From IMG/VR virus record IMGVR_UViG_3300032167_005013: a stretch of 64,000 nt of DNA. One strand, 5' to 3'. The notes under the pieces are model-generated. The model was given only the letters and a program-made list of their open reading frames with translations, searched no databases and was not told the DNA's origin. Shown here in pieces: positions 3,777 through 30,995 of the stretch (its first letter is position 1; each line of letters begins with the position of its first letter). This DNA is from a virus (taxonomy: Duplodnaviria > Heunggongvirae > Uroviricota > Caudoviricetes). Made by a program: the position numbers and the translations under genes.

Positions 3777-3831
3777 AATTTTCTATGATTTTATACTAAT
3801 AATATAAAAAAATGTTACACAAATGTCAATG

Positions 3832-4623: not shown

Positions 4624-4638
4624 ATTATTTCAAATAAT

Positions 4639-6122: not shown

Positions 6123-6130
6123 AATTTTTT

Positions 6131-6697: not shown

Positions 6698-6701
6698 ACT
6701 A

Positions 6702-7497: not shown

Positions 7498-7504
7498 ATT
7501 ACTT

Positions 7505-7720: not shown

Positions 7721-7745
7721 AATTAACTACTTTTAATTTTTATTA

Positions 7746-8516
7746 TTACTTTACCTCCCAAACTTTACCTTCAAGTTCCTGATTTTCACAATTCTCTAAA
7801 ATGTTAAAAAGGTTTGTCTTCTTAGCCTTCTTCTCATTCTTTTCAAAAACCCAAAATGTTGAAGTATATTTTCTTGCATGCTGTTGTGCCTTGTACTTAC
7901 CTGCAGAAATTAGTCTTGCTTTTGCTTCAAGAATAAACTCATCCTTAACATAAAAACCAAGTTTCTGAGCAGACATGAATGCAAATGGTACAGCCCAAAT
8001 TTCCAAGCCACCCGAAACTGTTGATTGCATTTTAAAAACACAGATTCCTCCGGGTTTAAGGACTCTATAAGCCTCTTTAATCCACCAATATTCATTTTCC
8101 ATAAGTTCACCCACAGGATAAAAGGATGAAAATCTCTTGGCTATCAATGATGAACCTTCTTTGTTATTAACAACACTTGGACAAGCCTTAGGAGAAATCA
8201 CAAATGGAAGGTCAATGACAATTGATTCGATGCTTTCATCTTCCAACGGAAGTTTTTCAAATGGGGTGATTTTACCAACCCTATCAAACTGAGGGAATAC
8301 ATCAAAAAGGTACTTTGGTTCAGGAATATGATATTCTTCACCTTTTCTATCTTCATAGAATTTCAATGTCGAGGCCGTAATATCACAATCAAATGGTTTA
8401 CCACCGTTATGCAGTGTCATAATATTATACAATATCTCTTTTTGGTCATAAGAAATATTGCGTATAATCGTACTGTTATTAAACTCTTCTTTTGTAAGTC
8501 TTGCGTTATCTTCCAT
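7746..8516 (-). CDS. putative SAM-dependent (N6/N4 DNA) methyltransferase-like protein
   Basis: IVIDLPF (a variant of the DPPY/F motif) followed by YRVLKPGGICVF (the RvLKpgG block of beta-class N6_N4 methyltransferases); no clear FxGxG; start moved to ATG 8514-8516 because the ORF-track start is TTG. Confidence 0.35.
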   Translation of the reverse strand: MEDNARLTKEEFNNSTIIRNISYDQKEILYNIMTLHNGGKPFDCDITASTLKFYEDRKGEEYHIPEPKYLFDVFPQFDRVGKITPFEKLPLEDESIESIVIDLPFVISPKACPSVVNNKEGSSLIAKRFSSFYPVGELMENEYWWIKEAYRVLKPGGICVFKMQSTVSGGLEIWAVPFAFMSAQKLGFYVKDEFILEAKARLISAGKYKAQQHARKYTSTFWVFEKNEKKAKKTNLFNILENCENQELEGKVWEVK

Positions 8517-9482: not shown

Positions 9483-9690
9483 TCAAACGTAGAAATGTTT
9501 GCTGATATTCCGCTGAAAGGAGCCCTCCATTATAATACACACAACCGTGTACCACTGAAATTTCCATACCCGCAGGGACTGCCATGTTTCCAAAACCCCA
9601 TTCTTTCTTAAAAACATATTTCTCAACATCGTTTATGCTACTCTTAGGGGCAAATGTATATGTCTTTATTCCGTTATTTTCCGTTACCAT
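9415..9690 (-). CDS. hypothetical protein
   Basis: 91-aa ORF. Confidence 0.35.
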   Translation of the reverse strand: MVTENNGIKTYTFAPKSSINDVEKYVFKKEWGFGNMAVPAGMEISVVHGCVYYNGGLLSAEYQQTFLRLIETEKRKGFQYLKPDMPIHNKC

Positions 9691-9710
9691 TGTTCAAAAA
9701 TATTTTAATA

Positions 9711-10175
9711 TTATTTTGTATATTGAATTCGATAAGTAGTACCTTTTGCAGCCATATTATATGAATCCACTAACATTTCAGTGACTTTTTTCCACTTATC
9801 CTCAGCTTCACTGAAATTACGTTGTTTTATCCCCATAAAAATCTCACTCTGAATTGTGGCCAACTGTGCGTAAAGAATATTAAGCGGCGAATAATAGTCA
9901 TCAATCTCAACAGACCCTTCACAATCTACACTAAATGTGGTCTCCCACTCTTTTGGAGTATTTTTAAGTTCTTTATAAGACTCAAACTTGGCATATCTTT
10001 CAGCCATATCACGTTCAAATGGGCTCTCCTTTGCTTTAATATCATCTAAAATTTCTTTAACACGCTTAGAATCGCTGTCAGTCCATTTGATTTTCAAACT
10101 GTTAACCTTTTTCTCTTCATTAGCCTTGATGTATTCATTCATCCTGCGTATAAGTTCAATATCGTAATTGTCCAT
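9711..10175 (-). CDS. hypothetical protein
   Basis: 154-aa ORF. Confidence 0.45.
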   Translation of the reverse strand: MDNYDIELIRRMNEYIKANEEKKVNSLKIKWTDSDSKRVKEILDDIKAKESPFERDMAERYAKFESYKELKNTPKEWETTFSVDCEGSVEIDDYYSPLNILYAQLATIQSEIFMGIKQRNFSEAEDKWKKVTEMLVDSYNMAAKGTTYRIQYTK

Positions 10176-10229: not shown

Positions 10230-11123
10230 TTAATCGTGTATTAATGGTTTTAATTCTCTGTTTTTCAACGCTTCTTTAAGTGTGGCAACAAATTCCTCAA
10301 GATTAATCTTATCGTATGTACCATCAGGCTTAAGCCATAATATTCTTCGAGCAATGACTTTCAGCCCAACCTTTTCGAGACAATTCTGATATAAAGAAAG
10401 TTGTAACTTATATAAGTTCAAAGGCATGTCCAACAATTCTTCAAACGGTACAAGTAACTTCTTTTCTTTGAAATTCTTATAAAGATTCGCATTTGTCTTC
10501 CAATCCATTACTATAAGCCCACTTTTGTCAGGTTTCTTGCCTTCCAACTCCGCATCATAATAAAAAAGAATATCAAATGTCCCCGAATAACCCAAATCAG
10601 CGTCATATACCTTTGTTTCTGCCATAATAGGAATAATGCACTCCGGAATATCCTCATAGAATTTCACAACAGCCTCCTCCTTAGGGTCATAAGCAACAAA
10701 CCCCCCATCTTCAGTTAACCTATTCTTATAATCAGGGAGAATCTTATCATGTTGCCCTATCATATAATAAAAACAAGATTCCCCAAATTCATGCCTAAAT
10801 GTACCCGTTGTACATGCTTCATTGCTTATTTTTTTCCATGATGCCAAAATTTCATCGGCTGTCATTCCATAATACTTGGACTTAGGATTATTGAAGTTGC
10901 GTTCATAAGTCTCCTGTGCCTTTATCTTAGAATCAAAATGTTCTTGAAAAAGGTGGGTTACATCTGAAACACAAGTCATTGGCTTTCCGTTAAGGAAATA
11001 TTTATGTCCATCTTCAATAAAGACAAGCCCATTAAATGAACTGCGTATTTTCTCTCTTATTTCTTCATATTTCGGGTTATCCCAAATCCCCTCCCATTTA
11101 TTGTTTCTATATAACGTTCTCAT
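10230..11123 (-). CDS. PD-(D/E)xK family nuclease (YqaJ / lambda-exonuclease-like)
   Basis: GTFDILFYYD ... LIVMDWKTN (D...D/E-x-K core); ATG start. Confidence 0.5.
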   Translation of the reverse strand: MRTLYRNNKWEGIWDNPKYEEIREKIRSSFNGLVFIEDGHKYFLNGKPMTCVSDVTHLFQEHFDSKIKAQETYERNFNNPKSKYYGMTADEILASWKKISNEACTTGTFRHEFGESCFYYMIGQHDKILPDYKNRLTEDGGFVAYDPKEEAVVKFYEDIPECIIPIMAETKVYDADLGYSGTFDILFYYDAELEGKKPDKSGLIVMDWKTNANLYKNFKEKKLLVPFEELLDMPLNLYKLQLSLYQNCLEKVGLKVIARRILWLKPDGTYDKINLEEFVATLKEALKNRELKPLIHD

Positions 11124-12571: not shown

Positions 12572-13299
12572 TATGCAATCCTCCCTGACAAATATAGTTT
12601 TAACATATTATCCTGAGGTTCATAAGCCTCATCAACATAAGAAACATTGGCAATTGCAGTACCATCAACAACTTGTAGTTTATGATTTCCTGAATGTATA
12701 TGTCCACAAAAAACATACTGTGGCTGTTTTTCCTTAATTGCAGCAGCAAGAATTGGACAGCCTGCATTACGTTTGTATGGTGTGCCCCAATCAACATATC
12801 CGTAGCCTTCAATATCAGGTGCCGAATGGGTTATAAGAACATCAAGGTCTTCAGGAATTTCAGCAAATTTCTTCCTTAATTTTGCATCAGAACGCATAAA
12901 AGCCCAATTACCAAAAATCTGACAATATGGGGTACCGAAGATTTTTAAATATGATGGCATACCTGAACCGTCATCAATATATTCAAAGCGGTATTCTTTA
13001 TTCCTGAGAACCACAAGACGGCCATTAGTCAACATTGAAAGCCGTTGATAATCATCCTCATTCCAACGTTCAAAAACCATATCATGATTTCCCGGGGTCA
13101 TAACCACCTTACTCCACACATTTTTAAAAGGGAGAGACAGAATCCATTCAACAAACTCATTTTCCACCCATTCTTTTTGAAATGAGAAATAATGGTCATG
13201 CGCAGGAACCACATCACCACATATCAACATGAGGTCAAATTCCTCAACAACTGTAGGTAAATTACCATGTAAATCTGATGTAACAATTGTCTTAAACAT
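12571..13299 (-). CDS. calcineurin-like metallophosphoesterase
   Basis: SDLHGN, GDVV, GNHD and GHIH motifs; start moved to ATG 13297-13299, which overlaps the stop of the upstream gene (TAATG). Confidence 0.6.
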   Translation of the reverse strand: MFKTIVTSDLHGNLPTVVEEFDLMLICGDVVPAHDHYFSFQKEWVENEFVEWILSLPFKNVWSKVVMTPGNHDMVFERWNEDDYQRLSMLTNGRLVVLRNKEYRFEYIDDGSGMPSYLKIFGTPYCQIFGNWAFMRSDAKLRKKFAEIPEDLDVLITHSAPDIEGYGYVDWGTPYKRNAGCPILAAAIKEKQPQYVFCGHIHSGNHKLQVVDGTAIANVSYVDEAYEPQDNMLKLYLSGRIA

Positions 13300-14111
13300 T
13301 ATATCCTCCAACCAAATTTAGATTTATCATTATTAACTTTCACGAGAACTCTACCTATTTTATGTATAAGTTCGTTTATACACTTTTCCACTTTTTTAAG
13401 ACTCCATTTGTATTCTTTAAGAATCTTCTTCAATTCAATATCATTTTTTACATCATCGAATATCTCAATTAACTCAATATATAACTTACCGACTTCACTG
13501 TTGCTTATGTTGCTATAATCATATGGGGGCGTTGCAAAATTATCAACCATACAATACGAATACAGCCCATTAATGAAGCCATCCTGTTCAGACTTAAGAC
13601 AACCATAAATCAATCTACCTACCTTATGGCGTTTTTCGTCAGACGATTCCATATCATTCCTCATCTTGGCATATAACGTATTGCTTGGAATTGTTTTCTG
13701 AGAACGAAACTGCTGCAAGATATGTTCCAATTCATGTTGAATCACTTCAACCGCCTTTTCCTTAACAATAGTACCATTAATACCATATAAATTGATATTA
13801 CATATTATATGATATCGTCCAAGATATGCAGAGCCACCTGTTACCAAACAACTTTCCCCATATTTATCAACTTCTTCCTTATTAAGGAAATTCCTATATT
13901 GATAGGAAATTTTAAACTGATGGTCGTCAATTTCAGCACCAACAGAACCTCTTTGGATGGTATATGAACCACCATCTTCTTTCTCCCTGTTTGGTAAATC
14001 ATTGACAATCGTTTTAAACACCCTTACAGCCTCATCATAAACACCTTGAAGAACGCCAAGTTCCTCTTTCACAAGAACTCGTAACTGATTTTCGTTTATA
14101 ATCAGCCTCAT
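13299..14111 (-). CDS. hypothetical protein with an HExxH motif (QHELEHI)
   Basis: 270-aa ORF. Confidence 0.4.
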   Translation of the reverse strand: MRLIINENQLRVLVKEELGVLQGVYDEAVRVFKTIVNDLPNREKEDGGSYTIQRGSVGAEIDDHQFKISYQYRNFLNKEEVDKYGESCLVTGGSAYLGRYHIICNINLYGINGTIVKEKAVEVIQHELEHILQQFRSQKTIPSNTLYAKMRNDMESSDEKRHKVGRLIYGCLKSEQDGFINGLYSYCMVDNFATPPYDYSNISNSEVGKLYIELIEIFDDVKNDIELKKILKEYKWSLKKVEKCINELIHKIGRVLVKVNNDKSKFGWRI

Positions 14112-14946: not shown

Positions 14947-15570
14947 ATGGCGACGGATAATAGTAATGCTATATACACAGCAGGAGAAATGCAAAATACA
15001 GGGAAGTTCAGTTTCAACACAACGAACATCAATAACGCATCATACATACCAAGTTTAGATATGTGTCCAACAAAAGCCCAAATTACTGCAGCAGCAAAAA
15101 CCGGTTATACTTTAACAATTTCAACAGCCTATAATGCTAAACAACTTGTACCAAGCAAAGATTGGTCTATGACAAAAAACATTGGTAAACTAACAATTCA
15201 TTTTTATACTAGTGCGTTAACATCAAACACAGTATTAAATGGATGGAGATATACAACTTCAACCCTCCCCTCGTTAAAATATAGCTCATTGGAAACAGGT
15301 ACATCTATTTTTTATTGTTCACCAGGTACTTTAAACTCAACTTATACCACAGGTGCGACATTAACCCTTAACACAAGCAAACACAGTACATGGCCAATAG
15401 GTTCTTACCTCTGTTATCTCGTATACATTTGTACAACTCAGACTGGTTATGCTGTATTATCTGGATATTATGAACCATCGGAAGCAAGTCAGTTAAATTC
15501 AGGAACTAACGTTGAAGCACTTAGGAACTGGTCAATACAAACCTTTACTTTTCAAGAATTTTATAGTTAA
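14947..15570 (+). CDS. Ser/Thr-rich hypothetical protein
   Basis: 207-aa ORF with an ATG start, between the operator-like palindrome and a strong terminator. Confidence 0.5.
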   Translation: MATDNSNAIYTAGEMQNTGKFSFNTTNINNASYIPSLDMCPTKAQITAAAKTGYTLTISTAYNAKQLVPSKDWSMTKNIGKLTIHFYTSALTSNTVLNGWRYTTSTLPSLKYSSLETGTSIFYCSPGTLNSTYTTGATLTLNTSKHSTWPIGSYLCYLVYICTTQTGYAVLSGYYEPSEASQLNSGTNVEALRNWSIQTFTFQEFYS

Positions 15571-16462: not shown

Positions 16463-17983
16463 TCAAACTGCATTATACTCACTAATACTCTCAATAAGGT
16501 CTGATAATGTCATAAGAACATATTCAGGGTACTTCTTTGAAACAAAATTTCCTGTCTTAGGGTCAATATCAGCAATTGCCGATATGCTCTTAGGTATATC
16601 CCCATCTTCAGCAAATGCTACTTTTTCATCATATGGCAGGGCTTCAAACGCCTCATTGAATGCATTACGAATTTCATTAATACCCTTTTCCTCTTCCTCA
16701 GCCATTCTCCTATCATAGTCAGCCACAATTTCCTCCCAATTCATAGAACATTCATCAATGAAAGGAATATCGAACTCAGGATGGGCTTTCCAAAAACGAA
16801 TCTCCTTATCTTCCATTGTCATCAACTGTTCATATGTATCTTGGTCGCCTTCCTTATTAGGTTGTCCCGAAGTAAGTACTGATTCTTCCTCGGTAAAATA
16901 TGGACGGTCCTCAGGATTGGTAATAAGAATACGTGTTCTAATATCTTTCGAGAAGCATACAAGAAGAGGTGTGATTCTCTTATTGAACATGTCAATATAC
17001 TTTGCTGAATTATATTCCTCACCTTCCTGACAATATACATCTGTTTCAGAATCAACAATATTCTGTGGAAGAAGTCGTGCGTTAAGAATAATCTCATCCT
17101 CTTTCTGAGCATATGGATAGGCCTTTGTTAAGAATTCATTCATTGTAAGGGACTTGTCCTCTTTCTTATGCGCCTTGAACTCCTTTTCAATTTTAGTGGT
17201 TACATCCACCTTCTCGTGTTCACCGTTTGATAAAGTCTGATATTCATAATATTTAGCCACTTTCTTGACATCAGCCTGTGACTTGCTTTTACCTGTATTT
17301 ACATAATACAAAGTCTCACCCTGCTTGACATCAAGCCCTTCCTTAATTGCCAATTCCATCCATGCCTGACGTGACTTAGGCCTACCTGCCTTAGTAAGCG
17401 TCTTGCAATCCTTAATATAATCTTTAATGTTCTTTTTTACCTTACCCTTGGATGCAATATCCTTAAGCGGAATCTGATAATTGTATATCTTTTCTATATA
17501 AGAATAATATTCATCCAAAAATCCTGAGCCATTGTTCTGCAGAAGCAACCTGATACCTTTTTCAAGAAACTTTGAAATATATATAGGCATTTTCTTGGAT
17601 TTAATGGTATTACCGACAAGTTTCACATCATTAGGAAATGGATTTTCCGGGAAATAATCTGCGTAATTTTTACGTGAGAAGTTGATGGTCGAATCAACAA
17701 TCTCATCTATGCCGAGTCCCATCTTTCCTCGCATATAAAGGTCATTGAACTCAGCGACATCGGCCTTGAAACCTGTATATTTTTGCCCTTCTACGACATT
17801 TCTATTTAGTCCTTTTCCAATGTAAGGGTTTTCGTCAGTATAACGATACTCTGACGGGAGTTTGAAGTTAAATCCGTCAGTATTTGAGATTACATTTAGT
17901 CCCAACGCATTTACAATTGTACCATCACATGAAATATCATAAACGTAATCATCTGTTTTTCCCTTTTTCTCTACTTTAATCAT
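16463..17983 (-). CDS. family-B DNA polymerase, C-terminal half, preceded by a 34-aa split-intein C-part
   Basis: opens MIKVEKKGKTDDYVYDISCDGTIVNALGLNVISN then TDGFNF; the DTDG motif-C remnant comes straight after the intein end; the TTG at 18013 is likely not the true start. Confidence 0.65.
   Translation of the reverse strand: MIKVEKKGKTDDYVYDISCDGTIVNALGLNVISNTDGFNFKLPSEYRYTDENPYIGKGLNRNVVEGQKYTGFKADVAEFNDLYMRGKMGLGIDEIVDSTINFSRKNYADYFPENPFPNDVKLVGNTIKSKKMPIYISKFLEKGIRLLLQNNGSGFLDEYYSYIEKIYNYQIPLKDIASKGKVKKNIKDYIKDCKTLTKAGRPKSRQAWMELAIKEGLDVKQGETLYYVNTGKSKSQADVKKVAKYYEYQTLSNGEHEKVDVTTKIEKEFKAHKKEDKSLTMNEFLTKAYPYAQKEDEIILNARLLPQNIVDSETDVYCQEGEEYNSAKYIDMFNKRITPLLVCFSKDIRTRILITNPEDRPYFTEEESVLTSGQPNKEGDQDTYEQLMTMEDKEIRFWKAHPEFDIPFIDECSMNWEEIVADYDRRMAEEEEKGINEIRNAFNEAFEALPYDEKVAFAEDGDIPKSISAIADIDPKTGNFVSKKYPEYVLMTLSDLIESISEYNAV
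17882..17983 (-). other. split-intein C-terminal part (Int-C, about 34 aa, ends ...VISN; the +1 residue is Thr)
   Basis: intein block F/G-like pattern DDYVYDISCDG..IVNALGLNVISN; inference from motifs. Confidence 0.55.
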
Positions 17984-18217
17984 ATTAAAATATTTTTCAT
18001 TAAGTTTTTGCAAAAATAAAAACTATTTTTCTTTTTTCCAAATATATTTTTTGGGAATGATATACAAGTTACACTAAAAATGCCATAAATAACTGAAGTC
18101 TATACGAAAATGTCTGGACTTTTTATGATATTTATTAAGAAAAAGTAGTATGAATTTACAATACGTTACTGCTAAAAATGTTAGAAATAATTTTTATAGT
18201 GAAAAATAAATATATAT

Positions 18218-18568
18218 ATGGAAAACCGAAATATAATACAACATCTACGTGGAAATTCACCATTATCAATTGGTAAAGCTAAAGAAATAGGAATGCTCCA
18301 AGGAGAAATTGCCATTAAACATGGTGTTAGCGGAGACTCAGAACTTTATGTATTATCACAAGATGGTGAAGCATTAGATATATTTGTTCCCAAATCGTAT
18401 ATTGATTCAAAACTGTTTTATGGTACACAGGCAGAATACGATGCGGCATATGCTGCTGGTAAAATTGCAATAGGCGCAATTGTTGTCATTATAGATGATG
18501 AAGAAAACACAAATGGCGCTTCATCTAAATTAGGTGAGGGTGTAATTGGAGAAATGATTTTAGAATAA
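18218..18568 (+). CDS. tail-fibre N-terminal-domain protein
   Basis: GEIAIKHGVSGDSELYVLSQDGEALDIFVPK resembles the N-terminus of the 56789..58483 fibre. Confidence 0.45.
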   Translation: MENRNIIQHLRGNSPLSIGKAKEIGMLQGEIAIKHGVSGDSELYVLSQDGEALDIFVPKSYIDSKLFYGTQAEYDAAYAAGKIAIGAIVVIIDDEENTNGASSKLGEGVIGEMILE

Positions 18569-18583
18569 AAAATAAATAAAGAG

Positions 18584-19447
18584 ATGATTTTATATATTAA
18601 AGGTGCTAATTTTTCAGCATCAAATATAGGAACACTTAGCACTTATATTGTGCAAAAAACTATGGGTGCAGGTATATCGCACAATATTCCTAATTTTATT
18701 AATAGAAACGAGGAAAACGTAGTATGGACTGTTACATTATCACAAGATTATATATTTGGTGAATATAGTATTGTTATGGGTGGTGAGGTAATAGAACCAA
18801 ATATTCAAGATAATATTATGACTATAACAATTCCAGTAGTAACCAATAACATCAGTATTTCAATTGCAAGCATTTATGAAAATAATGGAGATGGAAGTGA
18901 TGGACAAGAAACAGTTATATTGTTAAACAATAATGTTAATTTCTCAGATTTAAGTGTTTCATCATATGGTCCTACTCAAGGTACAGGTGGTTCTTCATTC
19001 GTAGAAAGATGTGCTCTTTCAGGAGGTACATATGTAGATTATGTTGATTTTTATGTTATCACACCTAACAAAACTTTCCCTAGCGAACCTATAACTATTC
19101 CATATATTAAACTATATTTTGTGGATGCTGAAACAGAAACTGTCGAAGAATTAGTATATGACCAAGCAAATCAATCATCTATTTTATCTGATACTACCGA
19201 AACAAATGGTTATCAAATTATTAGATGTCCTATTAAACGTACATTGCAAAAAAATATTCATCTTGGTATTACAGTAAATGAAGGTTATAGTGATTATTCA
19301 TCATTGTATACTATCCCTTATGTAAATTATACGACTTCTAATAGTATACTTGGTAAACCTTATTTTGGTACAACAATTGTTTTGGGACAAACAGTTGCAG
19401 GAAAAACTGCTAATTATTATTGTCCTATGGTAATTTATGGTTATTAA
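18584..19447 (+). CDS. tail-associated hypothetical protein
   Basis: 287-aa ORF inside the fibre cassette. Confidence 0.4.
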   Translation: MILYIKGANFSASNIGTLSTYIVQKTMGAGISHNIPNFINRNEENVVWTVTLSQDYIFGEYSIVMGGEVIEPNIQDNIMTITIPVVTNNISISIASIYENNGDGSDGQETVILLNNNVNFSDLSVSSYGPTQGTGGSSFVERCALSGGTYVDYVDFYVITPNKTFPSEPITIPYIKLYFVDAETETVEELVYDQANQSSILSDTTETNGYQIIRCPIKRTLQKNIHLGITVNEGYSDYSSLYTIPYVNYTTSNSILGKPYFGTTIVLGQTVAGKTANYYCPMVIYGY

Positions 19448-19479
19448 AATATAATTTTTTTCAAAAAAAAATAATTGAC

Positions 19480-20598
19480 ATGGGTTATACAAAACAAGGG
19501 TTTGTGAAGGGAATGACATTAGAGCATACTCACCTTATTAATATGGAAGATGGAATAATAAGTGCTTCACAAGGAGGTGTAGAGGATATTTATGCATCGT
19601 CATATGGTGTAGTACCTGGTGTTGTTGATATGAGTAAAATGAATGAGTTATTATCAGCAGCCAATGGCAAAACTATTAGGTTTAATGATGGTGAATATAT
19701 TTTTCCTTCGCATATAACAGTCCCTTCTAACATATCATTTATCGGAAACACTAAAACCATATTTAAATTATCAAGTGATAGTGCATCTAATATTCTTTTT
19801 TACATCGTTGGTTCGACTAATGTGACAATTTCAAGAATGTTTATTGATGGCGGGGCATCTAAAGTGCAACCTACGGGTAATGTCGATGATATTCTTGATA
19901 AAACAAATTCAGGCAATCGTTATGGTATTTGGTGTGAAAAAACCAGACGTGTTAAAATTACTGATGTTGATGTTTTAGGATGGGACATGTGTGGACTATA
20001 TTGTGCAGACAACGATTCAGGAGGGGGTGAATATGGCCGTTTCTTCCATACTATAGAAGTGACACGTTCTAGTTTTTATTTTAATTATTATGGTTTGTGG
20101 TTTGCTCAATATGGCGAATATAATCAGGTGGAATGTTGTAATTTTGGTGACAACTTTATTGGTGTTCTAAATGAAGGTGGAAACAATATGTATGTTGGCA
20201 ACATGTTTTGTAACAATTATTGCGGTTTTGCTTTGAATGGGGACGGAATTACTAACGAGTCACACGGAGGCTGTTATAGTTGTACTTACAACCATAATTC
20301 AATTACTGGATTAGGTGGCGGTGTTGCAATTTACATGAATAAAAGCACCGTTGGATGGAATTTTACGGGACAAAATATTTGGTATGGTGCTGTTACATTA
20401 AAAGATTGTAAAGGAGTTATATTTAATGGAAATATTTGGGGTAATGTTCAATTTACAAGTACACATTCAGAAGGATTAAAAAATCAAAATATGGTAACAA
20501 ACACATACTTCCATACCAACCCAAGTGCGGTGTTAAATGGAAATGATGGTTCGACATTTTTTGGACCTTATTTACCTGGGGGTGTGGTTAATGAATAA
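19480..20598 (+). CDS. putative tailspike or depolymerase with a right-handed beta-helix (pectate-lyase-like)
   Basis: repeated N..G / G..N turns and Gly- and Asn-rich beta-helix-like composition; start moved to ATG 19480. Confidence 0.45.
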   Translation: MGYTKQGFVKGMTLEHTHLINMEDGIISASQGGVEDIYASSYGVVPGVVDMSKMNELLSAANGKTIRFNDGEYIFPSHITVPSNISFIGNTKTIFKLSSDSASNILFYIVGSTNVTISRMFIDGGASKVQPTGNVDDILDKTNSGNRYGIWCEKTRRVKITDVDVLGWDMCGLYCADNDSGGGEYGRFFHTIEVTRSSFYFNYYGLWFAQYGEYNQVECCNFGDNFIGVLNEGGNNMYVGNMFCNNYCGFALNGDGITNESHGGCYSCTYNHNSITGLGGGVAIYMNKSTVGWNFTGQNIWYGAVTLKDCKGVIFNGNIWGNVQFTSTHSEGLKNQNMVTNTYFHTNPSAVLNGNDGSTFFGPYLPGGVVNE

Positions 20599-20636
20599 CC
20601 ACACCCCATTTTATAAAACAATAAAAATAACAAGAT

Positions 20637-22520
20637 ATGGCAACATTTTATATACAATTATCCGATAAATTGCTTAAAATAGGTGATGATGTAACTAAAG
20701 AAACAATTCATAAGGCTTTGGGGTATACTCCAAGTAGTTTTTCGGGTAATTTTAATGATTTGACTGATAACCCATTCGCAATTACTGATGATGGGGAATT
20801 TAATATTGTTGACGAAAATGGTAATATAGTAGCAAAATTCGATGATAAAGGTCTGCACGTTATTGATGTTGAAGTTATTTCTGAAGATGGTATTCATAAA
20901 CTTTCTAATAAAGTAGATAAAAATTATGTAGATAATCTAATTTTTAATGCTAATGAAAATTTACCTTTTAAAGAAGATGAATCAGGCTCTTTTGATATTG
21001 CGGATTTAAATGGTAATATAATTACCAGCATAGATAGCAATGGTGTTTCTTCTGTAGAATTTAATGCACGTGGTCATAAATTAACTGAAAAAATTGATAA
21101 TAATATACTTGAAAACCGTTTAGATGATTTAACAACAACTAATTTTTCTTCAGGAGAATATGTTGATATTACTCTTAAACAAGAGAAAGGACGCATTACT
21201 AATGTTAAAATTAGTGACACTAAGTTATCAAACGCAATTAAAATTGATGAAGACCCCGCATTTCAAATATCCGATAACAAAAATAACATTGCATTTAAGG
21301 TTGACGAAAAAGGGGCCGAGGCAGTGGAATTTCGTGCAGGTAAACATTATCTTACTAATAAAACGGAAAGAACTTACGTTGACAATGAACTTTTAAAACT
21401 TCGAGTTGATACTCAAAAATCGATAGGGAATATTAAGTTTTCTGACTTAACTGAAAATCCATTTAACGATTCAGAGGAAGGTACTTTAAAAATTGTCGAT
21501 AATAAGACTAATATAATAGTAACTATAGATAACAATGGCGTAACTTCAACTGAGTTTATTGCAGGAAAGCATAAATTAACTGAAAAATCAGATTTAAATT
21601 ATGTAAATAATAATTTTTTAAACATCAACACTTCAGTTGGCACATTAAAAGACAATATCCAAAATAATGAAAAAAATATATCATCTTTAAGTGATGATGT
21701 AGAAACTTTAACAAATGAAGTTTCTTTAAATACATCTGCTATTACTGAATTGCAAAATATAAAATATGCTTCTTCATCAAGTAAAGGTGGTGCGGCTGAT
21801 AGTGTGGCTAATGCACTAACAATTAAAGCAGGGTCAAGTAAAAACTTTAGTATCGACATTTTCAATGGTAGTTCTGTGACAACAATACCGCTACCAACAA
21901 AAATTAGTCACCTTGAAAACGATTCTAATTTAACTGATGACTTTAACGATGAATTTCATATTATTGATAATGAGGGCAATAAAATTGCGACATTTAATAA
22001 TTATGGCTTATTTGTTTCGAAAGTTACAACTGTAGAACCTATAATTTCTCAAGATTTTATTGCAGGAGAACATAAGTTGTCCAATAAAGTTGATAAAAAT
22101 CATATCGGTGATTCAGTTAAAAATGTTTTATTAACAACAAATGATTTAACCAATGAAGAAAAACAAACAATTAGAAATAACATAGGTTCTGTAAATAGTT
22201 TTGAACAGTATAGTAGTGATGGAGGAATTCTTAACGAGGAACAGTATAGAATAATGTCAAAATATTTATATACCCCATTTATGATTTCTTCTAACAGTGT
22301 GACTACAATACCAGATGAATTATTGAATGAAAGTAAAACAAATTTTTTCTGTGATTGGTGTTGGAATATAATGAGAATAACAGGTGGTGAACCAATAGTT
22401 GTAGTTGAATGGGACGACTATGATAACCCAACTAAGTTTAAAGGTCTTTTGAATGGAGTTACATATGTAGTCAATCGCACTAATTGGACCATTGCTCCTG
22501 AAGACTATTCGGGGGAATAG
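20637..22520 (+). CDS. tail fibre with five copies of an F-x-AGKHKL(T/S)xK-x-D-x-NYVDN module
   Basis: VEFNARGHKLTEKIDNN, EFRAGKHYLTNK, EFIAGKHKLTEKSDLNYVNN, DFIAGEHKLSNKVDKNHIGD, IHKLSNKVDKNYVDN. Confidence 0.55.
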   Translation: MATFYIQLSDKLLKIGDDVTKETIHKALGYTPSSFSGNFNDLTDNPFAITDDGEFNIVDENGNIVAKFDDKGLHVIDVEVISEDGIHKLSNKVDKNYVDNLIFNANENLPFKEDESGSFDIADLNGNIITSIDSNGVSSVEFNARGHKLTEKIDNNILENRLDDLTTTNFSSGEYVDITLKQEKGRITNVKISDTKLSNAIKIDEDPAFQISDNKNNIAFKVDEKGAEAVEFRAGKHYLTNKTERTYVDNELLKLRVDTQKSIGNIKFSDLTENPFNDSEEGTLKIVDNKTNIIVTIDNNGVTSTEFIAGKHKLTEKSDLNYVNNNFLNINTSVGTLKDNIQNNEKNISSLSDDVETLTNEVSLNTSAITELQNIKYASSSSKGGAADSVANALTIKAGSSKNFSIDIFNGSSVTTIPLPTKISHLENDSNLTDDFNDEFHIIDNEGNKIATFNNYGLFVSKVTTVEPIISQDFIAGEHKLSNKVDKNHIGDSVKNVLLTTNDLTNEEKQTIRNNIGSVNSFEQYSSDGGILNEEQYRIMSKYLYTPFMISSNSVTTIPDELLNESKTNFFCDWCWNIMRITGGEPIVVVEWDDYDNPTKFKGLLNGVTYVVNRTNWTIAPEDYSGE

Positions 22521-22580
22521 CATAGACCCCGAAGATACATCAACTAATGATGAAAATGAAATCATAGAAGGAGAATAAAC

Positions 22581-22613
22581 AAACCCAGGATTTTATCCTG
22601 GGTTTACTTTTTT
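22581..22613. terminator. bidirectional terminator (aaacccaggattttatcctgggttt + T-run)
   Basis: 9-bp stem flanked by an A-run and a T-run, between convergent genes. Confidence 0.6.
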
Positions 22614-25146
22614 AACTATTTTTTATCATTTTCTTTACATATTGGAGACCTGCAACAATGGTTTTCGAGTACGTAACCCCCTCCTTATAATTCTCCATGA
22701 ACGAATCGTAGAAAATCTTCATATTCTCCTTTGTTGTATTGAAAATAACGCAGTTTATCTTGCCATTAGGATTGTTTGCCGCATCAATACCAATTTGTTT
22801 CCAATCATCATACGGGAAACGCTTCTGATTAAGCCCCTTTATCTCGCCCTCATAATACTCCAATTTCGTACTTTCATTTATCTCACTTGGTTTAATCTTA
22901 ACCTTATCAGAATTGAAGAGGCTGTGGTCCTCAGTTACTTCCACCCTCATATCACCCTCAGAAACCTCGTATATTGGCTTATCGCACCCATGACGATAAA
23001 TGTATTCAGGTGAAACCCAACCACTTCTACAAAGCACTTCAAACGGCTTTTCTGAATAATCGTATTCCCTACCAAGTTCATCTACTTTAATAGCAAATGG
23101 ATTGATAAGCGTTTCAACAGGAAGAATGTCAATCAGCCCACTATTTTTCCAACGGATAAATAATGGCGTGTCAGGAGTGAAAGAGTCACCAACGATAGGT
23201 TTATAGCCAAGACTATTAAAGTGAGAAATCATAAGGCGAAGGCACATACGACCTGTACATGTTGTCCTCTCAGCACATATCTTGCTTCCCCATGGAAAAA
23301 GATTCTCGGCCCCGTATGACCCGAAAAAGCTATTACCTAACACCTTCATTTGAAGCTGTTTTTTATCATTTGCTGATTCCTCTTTTTCCACCAATTTCAA
23401 TTTATCTTTTAACTCATTAAGTTCATCATCACTACCACTAAAGTTTTTTATACGTTCTTTTAGTTTATCTATTTCTTTTCCTGCTTTTTTCTTAAGTTTC
23501 TTATATTTCTCACGTTCAGTAAGCACATATTCAAGGAACTTAAGCATTGAATCCATAAGGTCTCTACCATGAGTAATTCCCCATGTAAGAATAATTGACG
23601 GATAAAGTGAGTTAAAGTCAAATTTCGCAACATTATCAACAAATCCTACTGTGAGAAGTCTTGAGAGACCACCTGTAAATGTTCCACCTTCACCGAACTG
23701 TGGGATTGCGAGACCGTTTTCATATGACCAAGCAAGCATCAAACTTTTCCACTGTCCCGCAGTTCCCATTGTACAACATTTCTGGTATGGGACCGGTAGC
23801 ATTTTACATATAAGAAAATTGGTTGTATTGTAACGATGTTCTACCTTATCACATTCCCAAAGGTCATCAAGAAGATAACGTTCAACAATGTACTTTCCTG
23901 TGGTAGGTAAATAACCGGCCTTAATTGGTTTATCTTCAGTTACTTTATACCAATCACCATTTTCATTATTCAATGCATATGTGTTAACAGTATCATTCCA
24001 TGTATCTGAAATCTTGTCACCCGGTACATAGACACGGTTAACCTTTTCCATCTTTGAATACTTGGTAACGTACTTAAGGTCAGCCTTAAGCATATTACTG
24101 TCAATTGCCTGAGCGCGTCTTACCGCATGGAGAGAATCTGTCACAATTATTCCCGGAACGATTGTCTGCTTGAACTGTTCCACCTCACCACCAAGTTTAA
24201 GGACTGTATCCTTGGTATTCTTTCTAATAACATCATCACCAAACATTTTCATCTCCTCACAAATGTACTCAATTGGATAGTCAAGTTGTTCACATCTTGT
24301 GATAATGAAGTTCCAGTCGAAGTTTTCTCCATTATGTGCCGTAATGACGTCAGGATTAAAATATTGAATCATTGAAAGGAATACCTTAATGTTGTGCAAC
24401 TCACTTGCATCACGTTCTTCCTTTGTGTTTCCTGTTACTGTGAGGATGCGTTCAAAATCAACTTTTTTACCCTTATACATCACAGGACGATTAAAACGCA
24501 CACCAATCTGATTGATTCTATTATATCGAGGGTCGAGGCCTTCAGTCTCCAAGTCGAATATCATCCTCAAGAGTTTATCATAATCTTCATACCCCTTAAA
24601 GAATCGTTTTCCTGTGGATATCATGAACTGTTCCTGTGGAGTTACCACAAGATACTGTCTTTCATCTGCTTTTGAAACGAAATTCTCATTTTCCTCTTCT
24701 TCTGAGTTATCATCAGCCTTTGATTTCGAATATAAAGGGTTTTCGGCTTCTTTAAAGAATTTTGAAAATCTCTGATATGACATCGGCCTTTTTGCATAGA
24801 ACATGAAGATATAGCCATTGTCAGCGATTTCGGGAACCACTTCACCTTGATTATTCTTTGTATCAAGGACTTTTATGCCAATTCCAAATTCACGCATTAG
24901 GCGTTGCACTTCAGAACGGTCTCCATTGCAAAGTTTCTCACAGGCTCTTCGTGTTGCCCACACGAATGGACGGAATGGTTCCATCTTGTAGTGTTTAACG
25001 TCATTTGCGTCCCTGTAGAACACTTTTATTTTATCTTCATTGTACTTATATTCAAGATTTACGATACGTTCCTGAGGGTCGGTACCATTAATAAATGAAT
25101 TGATTACATCGGTCGTAATCTCTGTTTTTCTCTGAGGTTCAAGCAT
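22612..25146 (-). CDS. family-B DNA polymerase, N-terminal part (3'-5' exonuclease plus polymerase motifs A and B), fused to a split-intein N-part
   Basis: Exo I FDLETEG; motif A DFNSLYPSII; motif B KVLGNSFFGSYG; Tx2GR TTCTGR; then ...YKPIVGD / SFTPDTPLFI (intein block A) ... VEVTEDHSLF (block B); ATG start. Confidence 0.75.
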   Translation of the reverse strand: MLEPQRKTEITTDVINSFINGTDPQERIVNLEYKYNEDKIKVFYRDANDVKHYKMEPFRPFVWATRRACEKLCNGDRSEVQRLMREFGIGIKVLDTKNNQGEVVPEIADNGYIFMFYAKRPMSYQRFSKFFKEAENPLYSKSKADDNSEEEENENFVSKADERQYLVVTPQEQFMISTGKRFFKGYEDYDKLLRMIFDLETEGLDPRYNRINQIGVRFNRPVMYKGKKVDFERILTVTGNTKEERDASELHNIKVFLSMIQYFNPDVITAHNGENFDWNFIITRCEQLDYPIEYICEEMKMFGDDVIRKNTKDTVLKLGGEVEQFKQTIVPGIIVTDSLHAVRRAQAIDSNMLKADLKYVTKYSKMEKVNRVYVPGDKISDTWNDTVNTYALNNENGDWYKVTEDKPIKAGYLPTTGKYIVERYLLDDLWECDKVEHRYNTTNFLICKMLPVPYQKCCTMGTAGQWKSLMLAWSYENGLAIPQFGEGGTFTGGLSRLLTVGFVDNVAKFDFNSLYPSIILTWGITHGRDLMDSMLKFLEYVLTEREKYKKLKKKAGKEIDKLKERIKNFSGSDDELNELKDKLKLVEKEESANDKKQLQMKVLGNSFFGSYGAENLFPWGSKICAERTTCTGRMCLRLMISHFNSLGYKPIVGDSFTPDTPLFIRWKNSGLIDILPVETLINPFAIKVDELGREYDYSEKPFEVLCRSGWVSPEYIYRHGCDKPIYEVSEGDMRVEVTEDHSLFNSDKVKIKPSEINESTKLEYYEGEIKGLNQKRFPYDDWKQIGIDAANNPNGKINCVIFNTTKENMKIFYDSFMENYKEGVTYSKTIVAGLQYVKKMIKNS
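22885..23184 (-). other. split-intein N-terminal part (Int-N core about 100 aa beginning with Ser at 23182-23184; roughly 90 more residues continue to the stop at 22612)
   Basis: block A SFTPDTPLFI (compare CLSYDTEILT) and block B TEDH; inference. Confidence 0.5.
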
Positions 25147-29613: not shown

Positions 29614-29830
29614 GGTTATTCCATTGCAGTCAACTACACCCACCTAAAGGAGGGTGCTTGACACTGCCTCGTTAGAGGCATGTCGATTGGGAGGTTGACT
29701 GCTCCCTGCCTGTAAGGATAACCAATTGACCTTCAATTGGTAAAAAACTCGATACAGGGTGGTTGGACCTTTGTCCGATATTAATCGCAGCATTCCAATC
29801 TGAGTCAAAGACAACTCCGTCAACGCAGAT
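29600..29830 (-). ncRNA. candidate omega RNA (right-end RNA) overlapping the tnpB 3' end and extending past the IS right end
   Basis: GC-rich structured segment 29641-29720 (hairpin gacatgcctc-taac-gaggcagtgtc) in an otherwise AT-rich genome; position matches known TnpB omega RNAs; not verified. Confidence 0.3.
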
Positions 29831-30995
29831 ATATCTGCGACCACGGCGCTCTCCATCACGATTATTGGTGCGACAATCCATCTGACTTGTATACATCGGA
29901 GAAACTGTTTCCACCTGCTTGCCCGCAAGTGGTGCCTTGTAAGTCAATATACGTTTAAATTCATAAAATGGAATCTGAGATAAAGCATTGTTATGCTTCG
30001 CTCTCTTGTACCCCTCACTGGTACGTGAAGTTTTCTTTTTAATCTTTGTGAGGTCTTCCATCACAATGATGGAAGCATTTGTACTATTAATGAGTACTTT
30101 ACTTGCACGATAACACATGTCCTTAGAGAGGTTGCGTTCCTTGTTGCGAACTTTCTTAAGGTGGCGCTTTGCTGATTTGGTACCTTTCTCTTGTAGTTTA
30201 CGCTTAAGATAACGGATGTCCCTACGCTTCTTAAGATATGTTGTATCTTTAAATGCCTTACCCTCTGAGGTAACAAATATCATTCTTGCACCGAGGTCAA
30301 CACCTATGCACTCCTCAGAATGTAATGGTTTTTCAGGTACTTCGAAGGGTACTGAAAGGAAGAAATTCCCGTTTCTATAGAATATTGTAGGGTCATATGC
30401 CTTATAAGTACTAAGCATTTCTTTTGCCTTAGGATAGACATTAAAAGGTACGAAAGTACGTTTGTTTTTCTGTGCCCCAGTAATGGTTATTCCTTCAGAT
30501 GTAAGCACTCCGTAGAGGCGTTTATCGAGGGTCATTGTTAATGATTTTCTCTGTGGTACTTCAGCGTTCTTATGTTTGTTTGCTTTAATTGATTTCAAAG
30601 CAGACGCTGCTGCTTGTTCGCACTTGATTACCATCTGTGAAGATAAAGCAGGAAACTCTGTCCTAATTACGTTATAACACGCCTCGTGTACTTTTTTAAG
30701 TGACAGTGTTATTTTGTTATCATGTAGAATACGTGTACACCTATTGTACGCATCTCTTGCACATACAAGAAGATTGTACCAATGCGTTGCATTGGTATCA
30801 TCCATTATTAGAGGTATGTTATAGGTTTGTACAATCATAGCATTCACGTATGTGATTTCTATATATAAATATTATAATAAATTAAAAAGTTTTATTTTTT
30901 TTTAAAAGTTATATATTTACATTAAGAAAATAATGTTTAACCAAAAAGGGTTTAATCGTAGTTCCTCTCCACCCTAAAGGATGGAGTTTCCCTAC
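29620..30995 (-). mobile_element. IS200/IS605-family element carrying only tnpB (IS1341-like), about 1.35 kb
   Basis: TnpB ORF; related subterminal hairpins at the left end (ctccaccctaaaggatggag, 30968-30987) and right end (cacctaaaggagggtg, 29641-29656); 10-bp inverted repeats 29625-29635 / 29693-29702 bracket the right end; boundaries approximate. Confidence 0.5.
29672..30838 (-). CDS. tnpB: TnpB (OrfB), an RNA-guided nuclease of the IS200/IS605 family
   Basis: RuvC-I GVDLGARMIF; C-terminal zinc-ribbon / RuvC-III region RYICVDGVVFDSDWNAAINIGQR (compare the canonical HADxNAAxNI); N-terminal YNIPL...YN; GTG at 30847 or ATG at 30838. Confidence 0.7.
   Translation of the reverse strand: MIVQTYNIPLIMDDTNATHWYNLLVCARDAYNRCTRILHDNKITLSLKKVHEACYNVIRTEFPALSSQMVIKCEQAAASALKSIKANKHKNAEVPQRKSLTMTLDKRLYGVLTSEGITITGAQKNKRTFVPFNVYPKAKEMLSTYKAYDPTIFYRNGNFFLSVPFEVPEKPLHSEECIGVDLGARMIFVTSEGKAFKDTTYLKKRRDIRYLKRKLQEKGTKSAKRHLKKVRNKERNLSKDMCYRASKVLINSTNASIIVMEDLTKIKKKTSRTSEGYKRAKHNNALSQIPFYEFKRILTYKAPLAGKQVETVSPMYTSQMDCRTNNRDGERRGRRYICVDGVVFDSDWNAAINIGQRSNHPVSSFLPIEGQLVILTGREQSTSQSTCL

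Follow-up and report, generated by a model that had tools for sequence, protein, structure and literature searches.

A candidate receptor-binding cassette in the gap of an intein-split DNA polymerase gene of a jumbo phage

How do four genes of apparent fibre or receptor-binding character come to lie inside the DNA polymerase gene of a phage? In the 64,000-nucleotide stretch of phage DNA analyzed here (hereafter, "the window"), a family B DNA polymerase (PolB) gene on the minus strand is divided into two halves (16463-18013 and 22612-25146) 4.6 kb apart, and four plus-strand genes (g1 to g4, 18218-22520) are sandwiched between them. An earlier interpretation made from the letters alone ("the sequence-only reading") had located the four genes, and their open reading frames are borne out at the positions it gave. 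The features of the locus, in order of position, are:

16463-17881, minus strand: PolB C-extein, 472 aa, starting TDGFNFKLP
17882-18013, minus strand: C-intein piece, 44 codons counted from a TTG start
18014-18217: divergent intergenic region, specific to this genome up to about 18180 (blastn, alignment)
18218-18568, plus strand: g1, 116 aa
18584-19447, plus strand: g2, 287 aa
19480-20598, plus strand: g3, 372 aa
20579-20607, plus strand: internal hairpin, GC-rich with a T-run, overlapping the g3 stop codon (terminator scan)
20637-22520, plus strand: g4, 627 aa
22581-22605: convergent hairpin between the cassette and the PolB N-half (terminator scan, inverted repeat I17)
22615-23184, minus strand: N-intein piece, 190 aa, with Ser1 (SFTPDTPLF) and block B TEDH
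23185-25146, minus strand: PolB N-extein, 654 aa, with exonuclease and polymerase motifs, through ...KPIVGD

The window derives from a metagenomic assembly and the coding strand changes at both ends of the cassette, as might be expected of a chimera in which the cassette was wrongly joined between two polymerase fragments. However, different samples, assembled independently (ENA, JGI, Logan), agree on the gene order (their contigs include one of 165 kb and the longest, of 349,824 bp), and the three independent assemblies shown for g3 do not differ in arrangement. Neither does any contig examined with either exact polymerase half; the collection blocks that index the exact proteins number 32 for the N-half and 10 for the C-half. 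With the gene order recurring in this way, an assembly artifact is rejected, and the probability of a chimera is vanishingly small. The phage is a jumbo phage of about 350 kb.

Comparison with relatives indicates that the polymerase is split by an intein at the position of the cassette. The N-extein matches Pfam DNA_pol_B_exo1 and DNA_pol_B as well as a PHROG DNA polymerase (E 1.5e-52), with tblastn matches in relatives, and the C-extein is 47-62% identical (tblastn) to the C-terminal part of relatives' contiguous PolB genes. At the identical site, PolB in relatives is either an uninterrupted gene or carries intein pieces, in agreement with the earlier assignment of the two halves as intein-split, and the predicted spliced junction, KPIVGD followed by TDGFNFKLP, is contiguous sequence in three relatives (L001, L007, L013). 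The N-intein piece shares 50-59% of its residues with its counterparts in split relatives and 39% with the contiguous intein of L034; a tail of ~75 aa is alignable with the second half of a LAGLIDADG domain. The C-intein piece ends ...YVYDISCDGTIVNALGLNVISN, followed by Thr+1. Its true start is likely the ATG at 17983, yielding 34 aa, and a 506-aa version of the C-half is called in one assembly. Seven split relatives have C-inteins that align with this piece, as do the C-terminal splicing blocks of L034 and L048, whose inteins are contiguous. The window's own intein pieces match no Pfam or NCBIfam intein profile and are assigned because they are homologous to those of relatives; the contiguous L034 intein, one of these homologues, matches TIGR01445 and LAGLIDADG_3.

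We infer that the two halves splice: each would be transcribed and translated separately, and the N-intein of 190 aa (with Ser1 and TEDH) would then associate with the C-intein of 34-44 aa (with the terminal Asn, before Thr+1) and trans-splice, restoring motif C (IVGD-TDG) in a 1126-aa polymerase. Alternatively, the two open reading frames might do without trans-splicing, as a non-covalent two-subunit enzyme or as decaying remnants with another polymerase in the remaining 285 kb. The missing profile matches would suit this alternative, as would the penultimate intein residue, which is Ser rather than the usual His, and T4-like phages have functional split gp43 genes without an intein (PMC2677866). 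Nevertheless, both frames are intact and the exteins keep all motifs at 45-64% identity to relatives. Split alleles, with identities of about 50-59% in the N-intein and 49-95% in the short C-intein, retain Ser1, TEDH, block F, the terminal Asn, and Thr+1. The Ser-Asn ending is common to most split relatives, which argues for selection. We therefore retain trans-splicing and regard its absence as very improbable.

What occupies the gap elsewhere was addressed by comparing the polymerase halves in relatives, in which the gene is intact or its halves flank endonuclease genes. The polymerase is split at the same site in about two dozen relatives, and nearly all of these have same-strand Vsr-like homing-endonuclease genes in the gap, as the sequence-only reading had expected from other fractured genes; domains of the gap proteins at these split loci include DUF723, DUF4379, and Vsr/REase_MTES_1575-like. 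A few gaps hold other cargo, namely an IS1595 transposase with a gp19-like gene (L020/L137), a 545-aa gene on the opposite strand (L148), or an ordinary phage gene (L011, L160). The C-half of L167 stands apart, with no N-half closer than 8 kb.

Genes broken into split-intein halves that flank a free-standing homing-endonuclease gene are known as fractured genes (Dassa et al. 2009, PMC2677866). As in those, a phage DNA-replication gene is broken here at an intein and the halves lie close together in the same order and orientation, and the Vsr-like endonuclease family described there is the type found in the gaps of the window's relatives. In contrast, the window's gap is without an endonuclease and holds four unrelated, putatively structural genes on the opposite strand, so that the halves cannot be co-transcribed. 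The locus thus corresponds, at short range, to that study's hypothetical step IV (endonuclease loss, then uncoupling). Split family B polymerases also occur in other jumbo phages: in Pseudomonas phage MIJ3, the split PolB comes with a split intein and an HNH endonuclease (PMC6892783), and gut Jug phages have polymerase genes "split by intervening endonuclease sequences" (PMC12880540). These share with the window an intein-split polymerase with Ser1, TEDH in block B, and VYDI in block F, but their gaps hold endonucleases, and tail-fibre cargo is not reported there. The split inteins of cyanobacterial DnaE and Nanoarchaeum equitans PolB (cited in PMC2677866) likewise join essential polymerase halves from separate transcription units with unrelated genes between them, by trans-splicing that is predicted for the window. 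Those, however, are cellular genomes with the halves at distant loci, whereas here the gap in a phage is 4.6 kb and both the endonuclease-bearing and the contiguous stage persist among sister alleles. What is new is the tail-fibre cargo in the gap of an otherwise known fractured-gene arrangement; by the example of the cassette, unrelated cargo can be accommodated within an essential gene whose product is predicted to be spliced.

We consider it likely that the locus is a fractured PolB gene in which the endonuclease gene has been replaced by a horizontally acquired four-gene fibre/receptor-binding cassette in inverse orientation. A contiguous intein with a LAGLIDADG domain would have given way to a split one whose gap contained a Vsr-like endonuclease gene, and in this lineage the cassette would then have come to occupy the endonuclease slot, which is possible because trans-splicing makes the content and distance between the halves irrelevant to polymerase function. 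The split predates the cassette, since endonuclease-bearing relatives share it, along with the N-intein's degenerate LAGLIDADG remnant; the cassette is therefore a secondary occupant of the slot. The sequence-only reading had proposed that the cassette used the intein split point as a site of gene fracture. Its occupation of the site stands, but the cassette as the cause of the fracture is ruled out, as endonuclease-bearing relatives have the same, older split. The order of events, endonuclease loss and then cassette gain, is suggested by polymerases that are only about 45-64% identical. No relative was found with the cassette at this locus and an unsplit polymerase elsewhere, an arrangement that had been named as a sign of ancestry rather than insertion, and no strain of the same phage with an empty site or an endonuclease occurs among the contigs carrying the exact polymerase halves.

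Judged by gene order, the cassette is portable and moves as a unit. The order g1-g2-g3-g4 recurs in L191 and L193 (the closest copies, at 74-76% nucleotide identity, with homology fading within g4), where the flanks are RNase_T and Cas genes rather than PolB, and is more distantly kept in L089, L092, L097, and L098. None of these six copies adjoins PolB; the L097 module lies downstream of a tape-measure gene and after a holin gene. In L100, the module adjoins Peptidase_S74 fibres. Ranked by GC3, g2, g1, and g4 are the lowest three of the window's 69 genes. The same order at unrelated loci and the low GC3 both fit the earlier suggestion of acquisition as a unit; neither recombination scars nor flanking repeats turned up.

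The absence of scars and flanking repeats at the cassette would accord with a genome rearrangement, in which an inversion or translocation parted already uncoupled halves or brought the halves to flank a resident fibre operon. There is no flanking synteny with relatives to polarize the event, L167 shows that the halves can lie far apart, and structural genes in jumbo phages are often scattered. We nonetheless find rearrangement distinctly improbable: the halves are only 4.6 kb apart in the order and orientation of endonuclease-bearing relatives, the cassette is a compositional outlier, and the complete cassette occurs in unrelated contexts, with homology from just upstream of g1.

The character of the cassette as fibre/receptor-binding is supported by sequence comparison and by a structural model. 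g1 combines a fibre N-terminal module (residues ~3-68) with a conserved C-terminal module (residues ~57-115). In a comparison with the window's ORFs, 56 aa of its N-terminus are 34% identical (E 5e-5) to the N-terminus of the 564-aa product of 56789-58483, as had been noticed from the letters, but the weaker match claimed to the 54739-56685 protein was not recovered by BLAST at E<1. The N-module also heads fibre-like proteins of 464-1028 aa and a protein with a Gp10_C baseplate domain (P0164), and in P0168 it is combined with a g4-type head. The C-module forms the C-terminus of proteins preceding g2 homologues in L092 and L097. From this domain co-occurrence, we propose that g1 is a short adaptor, with an N-module of the same family as the resident 564-aa fibre-like protein's N-terminus and a C-module that would dock proteins encoded downstream.

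g2 has a conserved ~100-aa N-terminal beta domain and a variable all-beta C-terminal domain (alignment of 12 homologues), and its homologues lie directly upstream of g3 homologues in L089, L092, L097, L098, L191, and L193. Its AF2 model is of low confidence (pLDDT 58.7), and a search with this predicted structure gave no significant fold match. It may be a binding protein with a swappable C-domain.

The start of g3 is the ATG at 19480, since an identical called protein (P0001) and all homologues start there. The structure prediction that had been recommended for the supposed pectate-lyase-like beta-helix returned a right-handed parallel beta-helix (AF2, pLDDT 88, pTM 0.84), for which Foldseek (PDB, BFVD) finds polygalacturonases and phage tailspikes as well as polysaccharide lyases, among them RbmB. 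g3 also matches a PHROG tail protein (E 4e-8), and Pfam Beta_helix is present in one homologue. The tailspikes or depolymerases of Sf6, CBA120 (TSP3), Fri1 (gp49), and phi29 (gp12) share this fold, as does RbmB (Foldseek probability 1.00, E 1e-7 to 1e-4), but at only 10-17% sequence identity with g3, which is much shorter and lacks an N-terminal particle-binding domain; its catalysis is putative, from the fold. We thus describe g3 as a putative glycan-degrading spike, a beta-helix glycanase by its model, and "tailspike" as a statement on predicted fold and context.

g4 would be a fibre with a repeat shaft and a C-terminal head. The five repeats reported previously for this 627-aa protein were located near residues 87, 147, 237, 312, and 479 (~45-50 aa each, motif ...G.HKL[ST].K.D..Y[VI].N), followed by a head of ~105 aa that is 50% identical over 101 aa to that of P0168. 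Phage_fiber_2, GDPD, SASA, Big_2, and Laminin_G_3 domains are found among g4 homologues; g4 itself has no recognizable anchor domain.

The g3 helix, the g4 fibre family, and the long fibre-like and Gp10_C proteins bearing the g1 N-module uphold the earlier view of a receptor-binding cassette, which would add receptor-binding proteins to the virion; incorporation of g1-g4 is presumed from these relationships. An accessory "moron"-like module acting outside the virion, such as a soluble depolymerase and surface-binding proteins that lysis sets free or that work on the envelope of the infected host, could account for the small size of g3 (372 aa), its short N-terminal helix, and its lack of a recognizable virion-anchor domain, for a g2 with no assignable fold, for a location among replication genes far from the fibre-like genes at 54.7-58.5 kb, and for the L097 copy following a holin gene. 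We think this unlikely, given that the g1 N-module heads long fibre-like proteins and a baseplate Gp10_C protein, that the g4 head occurs on a fibre with the same g1-type anchor, that g4 homologues include Phage_fiber_2, and that g3-type helices occur within multi-domain proteins of 819-844 aa, in tandem in L182. The cassette may be compared with receptor-binding systems that are branched or built of several proteins and use adaptors, such as the CBA120 tailspikes and G7C gp66/gp63.1. In these, several exchangeable spikes or fibres, with conserved N-terminal docking parts and variable distal domains, are attached through an adaptor module that is short or N-terminal. The likeness to the cassette is one of overall architecture as generally described, and docking by g1 is proposed on grounds other than sequence or structural homology to those adaptors.

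The cassette may form its own transcription unit, with a conserved leader of ~35 nt, a hairpin after g3, and a terminal hairpin, and we likewise infer the timing of its expression. Homology with L191 and L193 starts about 30-40 nt upstream of the g1 ATG. The region at 18014-18217 had been read as a divergent promoter region; the divergent gene geometry holds and is the basis for a possible promoter there, and sigma-70-like sites are not enriched (49 found vs 46 expected). The C-half would require its own promoter within 17984-18217, and the N-half transcript would stop at the 22581-22605 hairpin, which scores as a terminator on both strands and so matches the bidirectional terminator predicted after g4. 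The strong hairpin at 20579-20607, with a 12-pair stem including 7 GC pairs, is possibly an attenuator or terminator between g3 and g4.

Four plus-strand genes, g1 to g4 (the cassette, 18218-22520), lie between the two minus-strand halves of a family B DNA polymerase (PolB) gene. [quoted passage not shown]

The split polymerase and its cassette
16463-18013, minus strand, PolB C-half ORF, 516 aa
18218-18568, plus strand, g1, 116 aa
18584-19447, plus strand, g2, 287 aa
19480-20598, plus strand, g3, 372 aa, start codon ATG at 19480
20637-22520, plus strand, g4, 627 aa
22612-25146, minus strand, PolB N-half ORF, 844 aa

The window is AT-rich (35% GC) and is coded mostly on the minus strand. Because independent ENA, JGI and Logan assemblies, with a longest contig of 349,824 bp, agree on the gene order, we regard it as the real order of a jumbo phage genome. 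Every contig that carries the exact polymerase halves has the window's arrangement, and none of them represents a strain of this phage whose gap is empty or filled by an endonuclease gene. Nucleotide and protein searches found no close GenBank phage; megablast of 15.5-26 kb against a phage collection gave no match, tblastn of the polymerase halves against that collection gave distant Salinibacter phage matches only, or none, and an Rfam search of the window returned no hits.

We compared the polymerase with 88 IMG/VR and 80 metagenome loci (45-70% identity). Most of these relatives carry an uninterrupted single gene in which the equivalent of N-half residue 654 abuts that of C-half residue 45, and these contiguous genes are matched from end to end by residues 1-654 of the N-half and 45-516 of the C-half. 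The N-half contains the exonuclease domain and the first family B polymerase motifs (Pfam; PHROG DNA polymerase, E 1.5e-52). At the junction, both halves carry intein-like extras, 190 aa on the N-half and 44 aa (34-44 by start codon) on the C-half. The predicted spliced sequence (...KPIVGD joined to TDGFNFKLP...) is identical to that of three contiguous relatives (L001, L007, L013) and restores the DTD of polymerase motif C; the predicted junction peptide is ...KPIVGDTDGFNFK. The N-half extra starts with Ser (SFTPDTPLF) and includes TEDH, and the C-half extra ends in ...YVYDISCDGTIVNALGLNVISN directly before Thr+1. All the conserved splicing residues are in place: Ser1 (SFTPDTP), block B TEDH, block F YVYDIS, and ...VISN followed by T. 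The penultimate intein residue is Ser, not His, as in most split relatives. Since the junction matches intein-less relatives and the splicing blocks are conserved, the proposal that the polymerase is split at an intein point holds. Because every splicing block is conserved across the split alleles, whose N-inteins are ~50-59% and whose short C-inteins are 49-95% identical, we infer that the halves are joined by trans-splicing. A similar Ser1/TEDH split PolB intein has been published for Pseudomonas jumbo phage MIJ3 (PMC6892783).

The window's intein pieces match no Pfam or NCBIfam profile, and both align with contiguous 355-358 aa inteins at the same site in two relatives, L034 and L048. These contiguous inteins, each with two LAGLIDADG motifs, pass the profiles TIGR01445 and LAGLIDADG_3; that of L034, to which the window N-intein is 39% identical, scores 31.2 bits against TIGR01445 (cut-off 24.5). 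The last ~75 aa of the split N-intein (22615-22840, minus strand) align with the second LAGLIDADG half of L034 and L048 and are kept in all split alleles. This alignment marks the tail as a remnant, which may be either a retained piece of endonuclease or a repurposed domain. For the C-half, the ATG at 17983 (506 aa, with a 34-aa C-intein) is a more probable start than the TTG at 18013: the C-halves of relatives start at the equivalent Met, and the 506-aa form is called in one assembly.

About two dozen relatives are split at the window's site with both halves visible, in every case on the same strand and 1-8 kb apart. In nearly all, the gap holds one to three same-strand genes with products of 490-640 aa carrying DUF723, DUF4379 zinc-finger, and Vsr/REase_MTES_1575-like domains. 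Genes of this type encode the free-standing, Vsr-like endonucleases known from "fractured genes" (PMC2677866), in agreement with the earlier suggestion that homing-endonuclease genes occupy this position. The window differs from such split-intein fractured genes in that its gap is without a free-standing endonuclease gene: neither an endonuclease gene nor a remnant of one was found in 18014-22611. Conversely, no g1-g4 homologue was found at the other polymerase loci (88 IMG/VR and 80 metagenome). A few gaps contain other cargo, such as an IS1595 transposase with a gp19-like gene (L020/L137) or an ordinary phage gene (L011 and L160) with a window homologue at 13299-14111. A further case of non-endonuclease cargo in the same polymerase slot is seen in L148, on a 274 kb contig, in which an opposite-strand gene (6518-8155, minus strand; 545 aa, HExxH motif, weak DUF5710 match) sits beside the endonuclease gene.

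On the polymerase tree, the intein states form a scattered pattern. The exteins of L034, which has the contiguous LAGLIDADG intein, are nearly identical to those of L029, L030 and L032, which have a split intein and a Vsr-like endonuclease gene, a contrast that implies two intein types in rapid turnover or in competition. L172 carries at the same PolB site a contiguous mini-intein of ~188 aa (9533-10093) in which the N and C pieces are fused without an endonuclease; the split form may have arisen from such an intein or reverted to it. The polymerase halves of L167 are fully uncoupled: its C-half carries a C-intein, and no N-half is seen within 8 kb. More than 8 kb of same-strand genes precede this C-half (1-8035), among them a family 2 glycosyltransferase and a TnpB-like gene with a Cas12f1-like TNB domain; a second large ORF there is TnpB-like by eye and has no Pfam match, and a fragment with a DPPY motif resembles a methyltransferase. 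L033 combines the split intein with a group I intron in the C-extein (10326-10630; Rfam RF00028, 70.6 bits), which marks the polymerase gene as a target of inteins, introns and endonucleases alike. Interruptions of ~220-350 nt resembling that of L033 occur in L006, L028 and L040.

The cassette is also found away from polymerase genes. Its closest copies (L191, L193/L194) contain the same four genes, with products of 115/116, 285/288 and 368/372 aa and, in L191, 514 aa. Their proteins are 64-82% (g1), 55-62% (g2) and 85-89% (g3) identical to those of the window, and nucleotide identity is 74-76% over ~2.6-2.7 kb, beginning 30-40 nt 5' of the g1 ATG and fading past the first 40-80 codons of g4. 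On one side these copies adjoin DUF551 and RNase_T genes, on the other helicase, Cas7fv-like and Cas6 genes; PolB is not among the flanks. In L191 (6372-11619), the neighbourhood of helicase (ResIII/DEAD), Cas7fv-like and Cas6 genes resembles a type I-F-variant-like CRISPR-Cas cluster carried by a phage. The order of a small protein with a g1-type C-terminus, g2, g3 and a g4-like fibre recurs in more distant copies:

L092, distant copy on a 51 kb contig
L097, distant copy downstream of a tape-measure gene
L098, distant copy, an island on the plus strand next to gyrB and UvrD genes on the minus strand
L089, distant copy on a 202 kb contig
L100, partial copy beside Peptidase_S74 fibres

In L089 and L097, the N-terminal part of the small upstream protein is common to a fibre of its own genome, as is that of g1 in the window. 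The proposal that the cassette was acquired as a unit is supported by close copies in L191 and L193/L194 and by distant ones in L089, L092, L097 and L098, and by these comparisons the cassette is a portable unit. It encodes no transposase, integrase or recombinase-like product (Pfam, PHROGs), and a search of its flanks for micro-homology, recombination scars, target-site duplications, or direct, inverted or terminal repeats found none beyond chance; it does not qualify as a transposon, IS or integrative element. Three of its genes have the lowest GC3 of the 69 window genes (g2 0.12, g1 0.16, g4 0.18; mean 0.286, SD 0.053). As a separate observation, three fibre-cluster genes of L089 (7109-13602) contain four in-frame TAG codons, and 20 of 21 genes there end in TAA and none in TAG, which suggests TAG recoding, probably to Gln because one TAG falls on the Q of the Mtd_N motif IQLRRG.

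Neither Pfam nor PHROGs returned a significant match to g1, g2 or g4, or to either of the fibre-like proteins resident in the window. The g1 protein is bipartite. Its N-module (residues 3-68) matches residues 2-68 of proteins of 464-1028 aa with coiled or repetitive shafts, as well as those of a protein of 197 aa that carries the T4 baseplate domain Gp10_C, and this conservation at the N-terminus of fibre and baseplate proteins places g1 with them. Its C-module (residues 57-115) is always matched at the extreme C-terminus of mostly short proteins. Pfam Mtd_N, considered for g1, does not match it. The reported resemblance to the N-terminus of the resident 564-aa fibre-like protein (56789-58483) was recovered (34% identity over 56 aa), and the weaker one to 54739-56685 is not significant. 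A reading of g1 as a truncated pseudogene of the resident fibre is unlikely: equally short proteins in L191 and L193 are 82% and 64% identical to it, and it is nearer the fibres of other phages (53-63%) than the resident one (34%). In g2, a strongly conserved N-terminal domain of ~100 aa precedes a variable C-terminal domain; its structure prediction is of low confidence, and a fold search gave no assignable fold. The five-copy repeat module described for g4 is present as five repeats of ~45-50 aa. About 100 g4 homologues have diverse distal domains, including Phage_fiber_2, GDPD, SASA, Big_2 and Laminin_G_3, and g4 has the repeat shaft and exchangeable distal domains common to annotated tail-fibre families. 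A 464-aa protein, P0168, links the cassette parts: its N-terminus is of the g1 type, its shaft is coiled, and its head shares 50% identity with the C-terminal 101 aa of g4. PDB sequence searches with g4 and the 564-aa protein returned nothing.

For g3, the predicted fold is a right-handed parallel beta-helix (AF2 pLDDT 88, pTM 0.84). Foldseek matches in PDB and BFVD include the polysaccharide lyase RbmB, polygalacturonases, adenovirus LH3, and the tailspikes of Fri1, Sf6, CBA120, phi29 and crAss001, and g3 also matches a PHROG "tail protein". The beta-helix part of the original label, a depolymerase-type tailspike, is upheld by the model and by Foldseek. No N-terminal particle-binding (anchor) domain was found; a ~35-residue segment with one helix precedes the helix domain. 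We therefore treat g3 as a putative tailspike, assigned by fold and context. Among the homologues, some are extended at the N-terminus by DUF4988 or collagen sequence or form part of proteins of 819-844 aa. Relatives of g3 occur in metagenome-assembled genomes of Bacteroidales, Cryptobacteroides, Clostridia and Eubacteriales, host assignment from the bins being ambiguous; pattern scans of IMG/VR for g3 and g4 found no relatives.

A hairpin at 22581-22605, where the N-half and the cassette converge, has a terminator score on both strands, consistent with the bidirectional terminator proposed there. At the other end (18014-18217), the C-half and the cassette do diverge; a sigma-70 scan showed no enrichment in support of a divergent promoter region. 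The intergenic motif CTAAAAATG..AAATAA is not significant, its observed count being reached in 12 of 100 shuffles. AT-rich leaders of ~29 nt lie just 5' of the start codons of g1 (18192-18220) and g2 (18558-18586) and are 79% identical; that of g1 is also conserved in L191 and L193, and the element may act in translation initiation or as a late promoter.

On the model we favour, the polymerase halves would be separate transcription units, the C-half requiring its own promoter in 18014-18217, and the two polypeptides would be rejoined by trans-splicing. Expression of the cassette would be late and as one unit, a hairpin at 20579-20607 possibly acting as an attenuator, and the cassette would add a second set of receptor-binding proteins, g1 serving as an adaptor with the same N-terminal anchor class as the resident 564-aa protein. 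The split with its degenerate LAGLIDADG tail is common to the window and to endonuclease-bearing relatives, so the gene was presumably already fractured when the cassette came, and the cassette appears to be a secondary occupant of an endonuclease slot. Acquisition at the intein split point therefore stands as regards occupancy, and not as regards the cassette causing the fracture. As flank synteny with relatives is absent, synteny does not polarise the insertion; with neither synteny nor an empty or endonuclease-filled strain to order the events, we infer endonuclease loss and cassette gain as the likely steps. Overall, the initial observation is confirmed and its interpretation supported, with refinements to the cause of the fracture, the tailspike label, the 54739-56685 match, and the promoter.

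Split inteins and fractured genes were already known, including split PolB inteins with endonucleases in jumbo phages (PMC6892783, PMC12880540), and the present finding is a variation on that arrangement, not a new kind of system. Dassa et al. proposed a step of "endonuclease loss, then uncoupling" (PMC2677866); this stage had existed only as part of a model and had been deduced from remote examples in cells (DnaE, N. equitans PolB), and the window would represent it at short range in a phage. Because one polymerase family holds the full series (no intein; contiguous LAGLIDADG intein; mini-intein; split with one to three Vsr-like endonuclease genes; split with endonuclease plus cargo; and, in the window, pure cargo), the gene-breaking pathway becomes directly comparable. 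The arrangement also suggests that an essential early gene tolerates a late structural operon in its midst. The cassette itself would be a widely distributed four-gene receptor-binding module (small adaptor-like protein, g2, beta-helix, repeat fibre), most of whose parts lack Pfam or PHROGs annotation and which could be used for host-range prediction and engineering in gut phages. We offer only as a speculation, and one we think rather improbable, the broader reading that the gap of a trans-spliced essential gene is a recurrent "safe harbour" for foreign DNA in this family of gut and rumen jumbo phages and that the cassette is a self-contained host-range unit. Under such a reading, the gap of a split intein may take any insert, from endonuclease genes and IS elements to anti-restriction-like genes and complete tail-fibre cassettes, and endonuclease-induced breaks may actively promote capture; the cassette may be "plug-and-play", with the g1 N-module fitting the recipient's baseplate socket and the C-module docking g2-g4.

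Two features near the polymerase halves are recorded here as minor observations. A lone plus-strand ORF (14947-15570; 207 aa, Ser/Thr/Asn-rich, no Pfam or PHROG match), present in all assemblies of the window's phage, lies inside a minus-strand block between divergent and convergent intergenic regions and resembles another small island on the opposite strand; the C-half operon is 900 bp away. About 4.5 kb from the N-half, a minus-strand TnpB/IS605 OrfB-like gene (29672-30847) matches a PHROG transposase (E 2e-42), and its called protein has a Cas12f1-like TNB domain.
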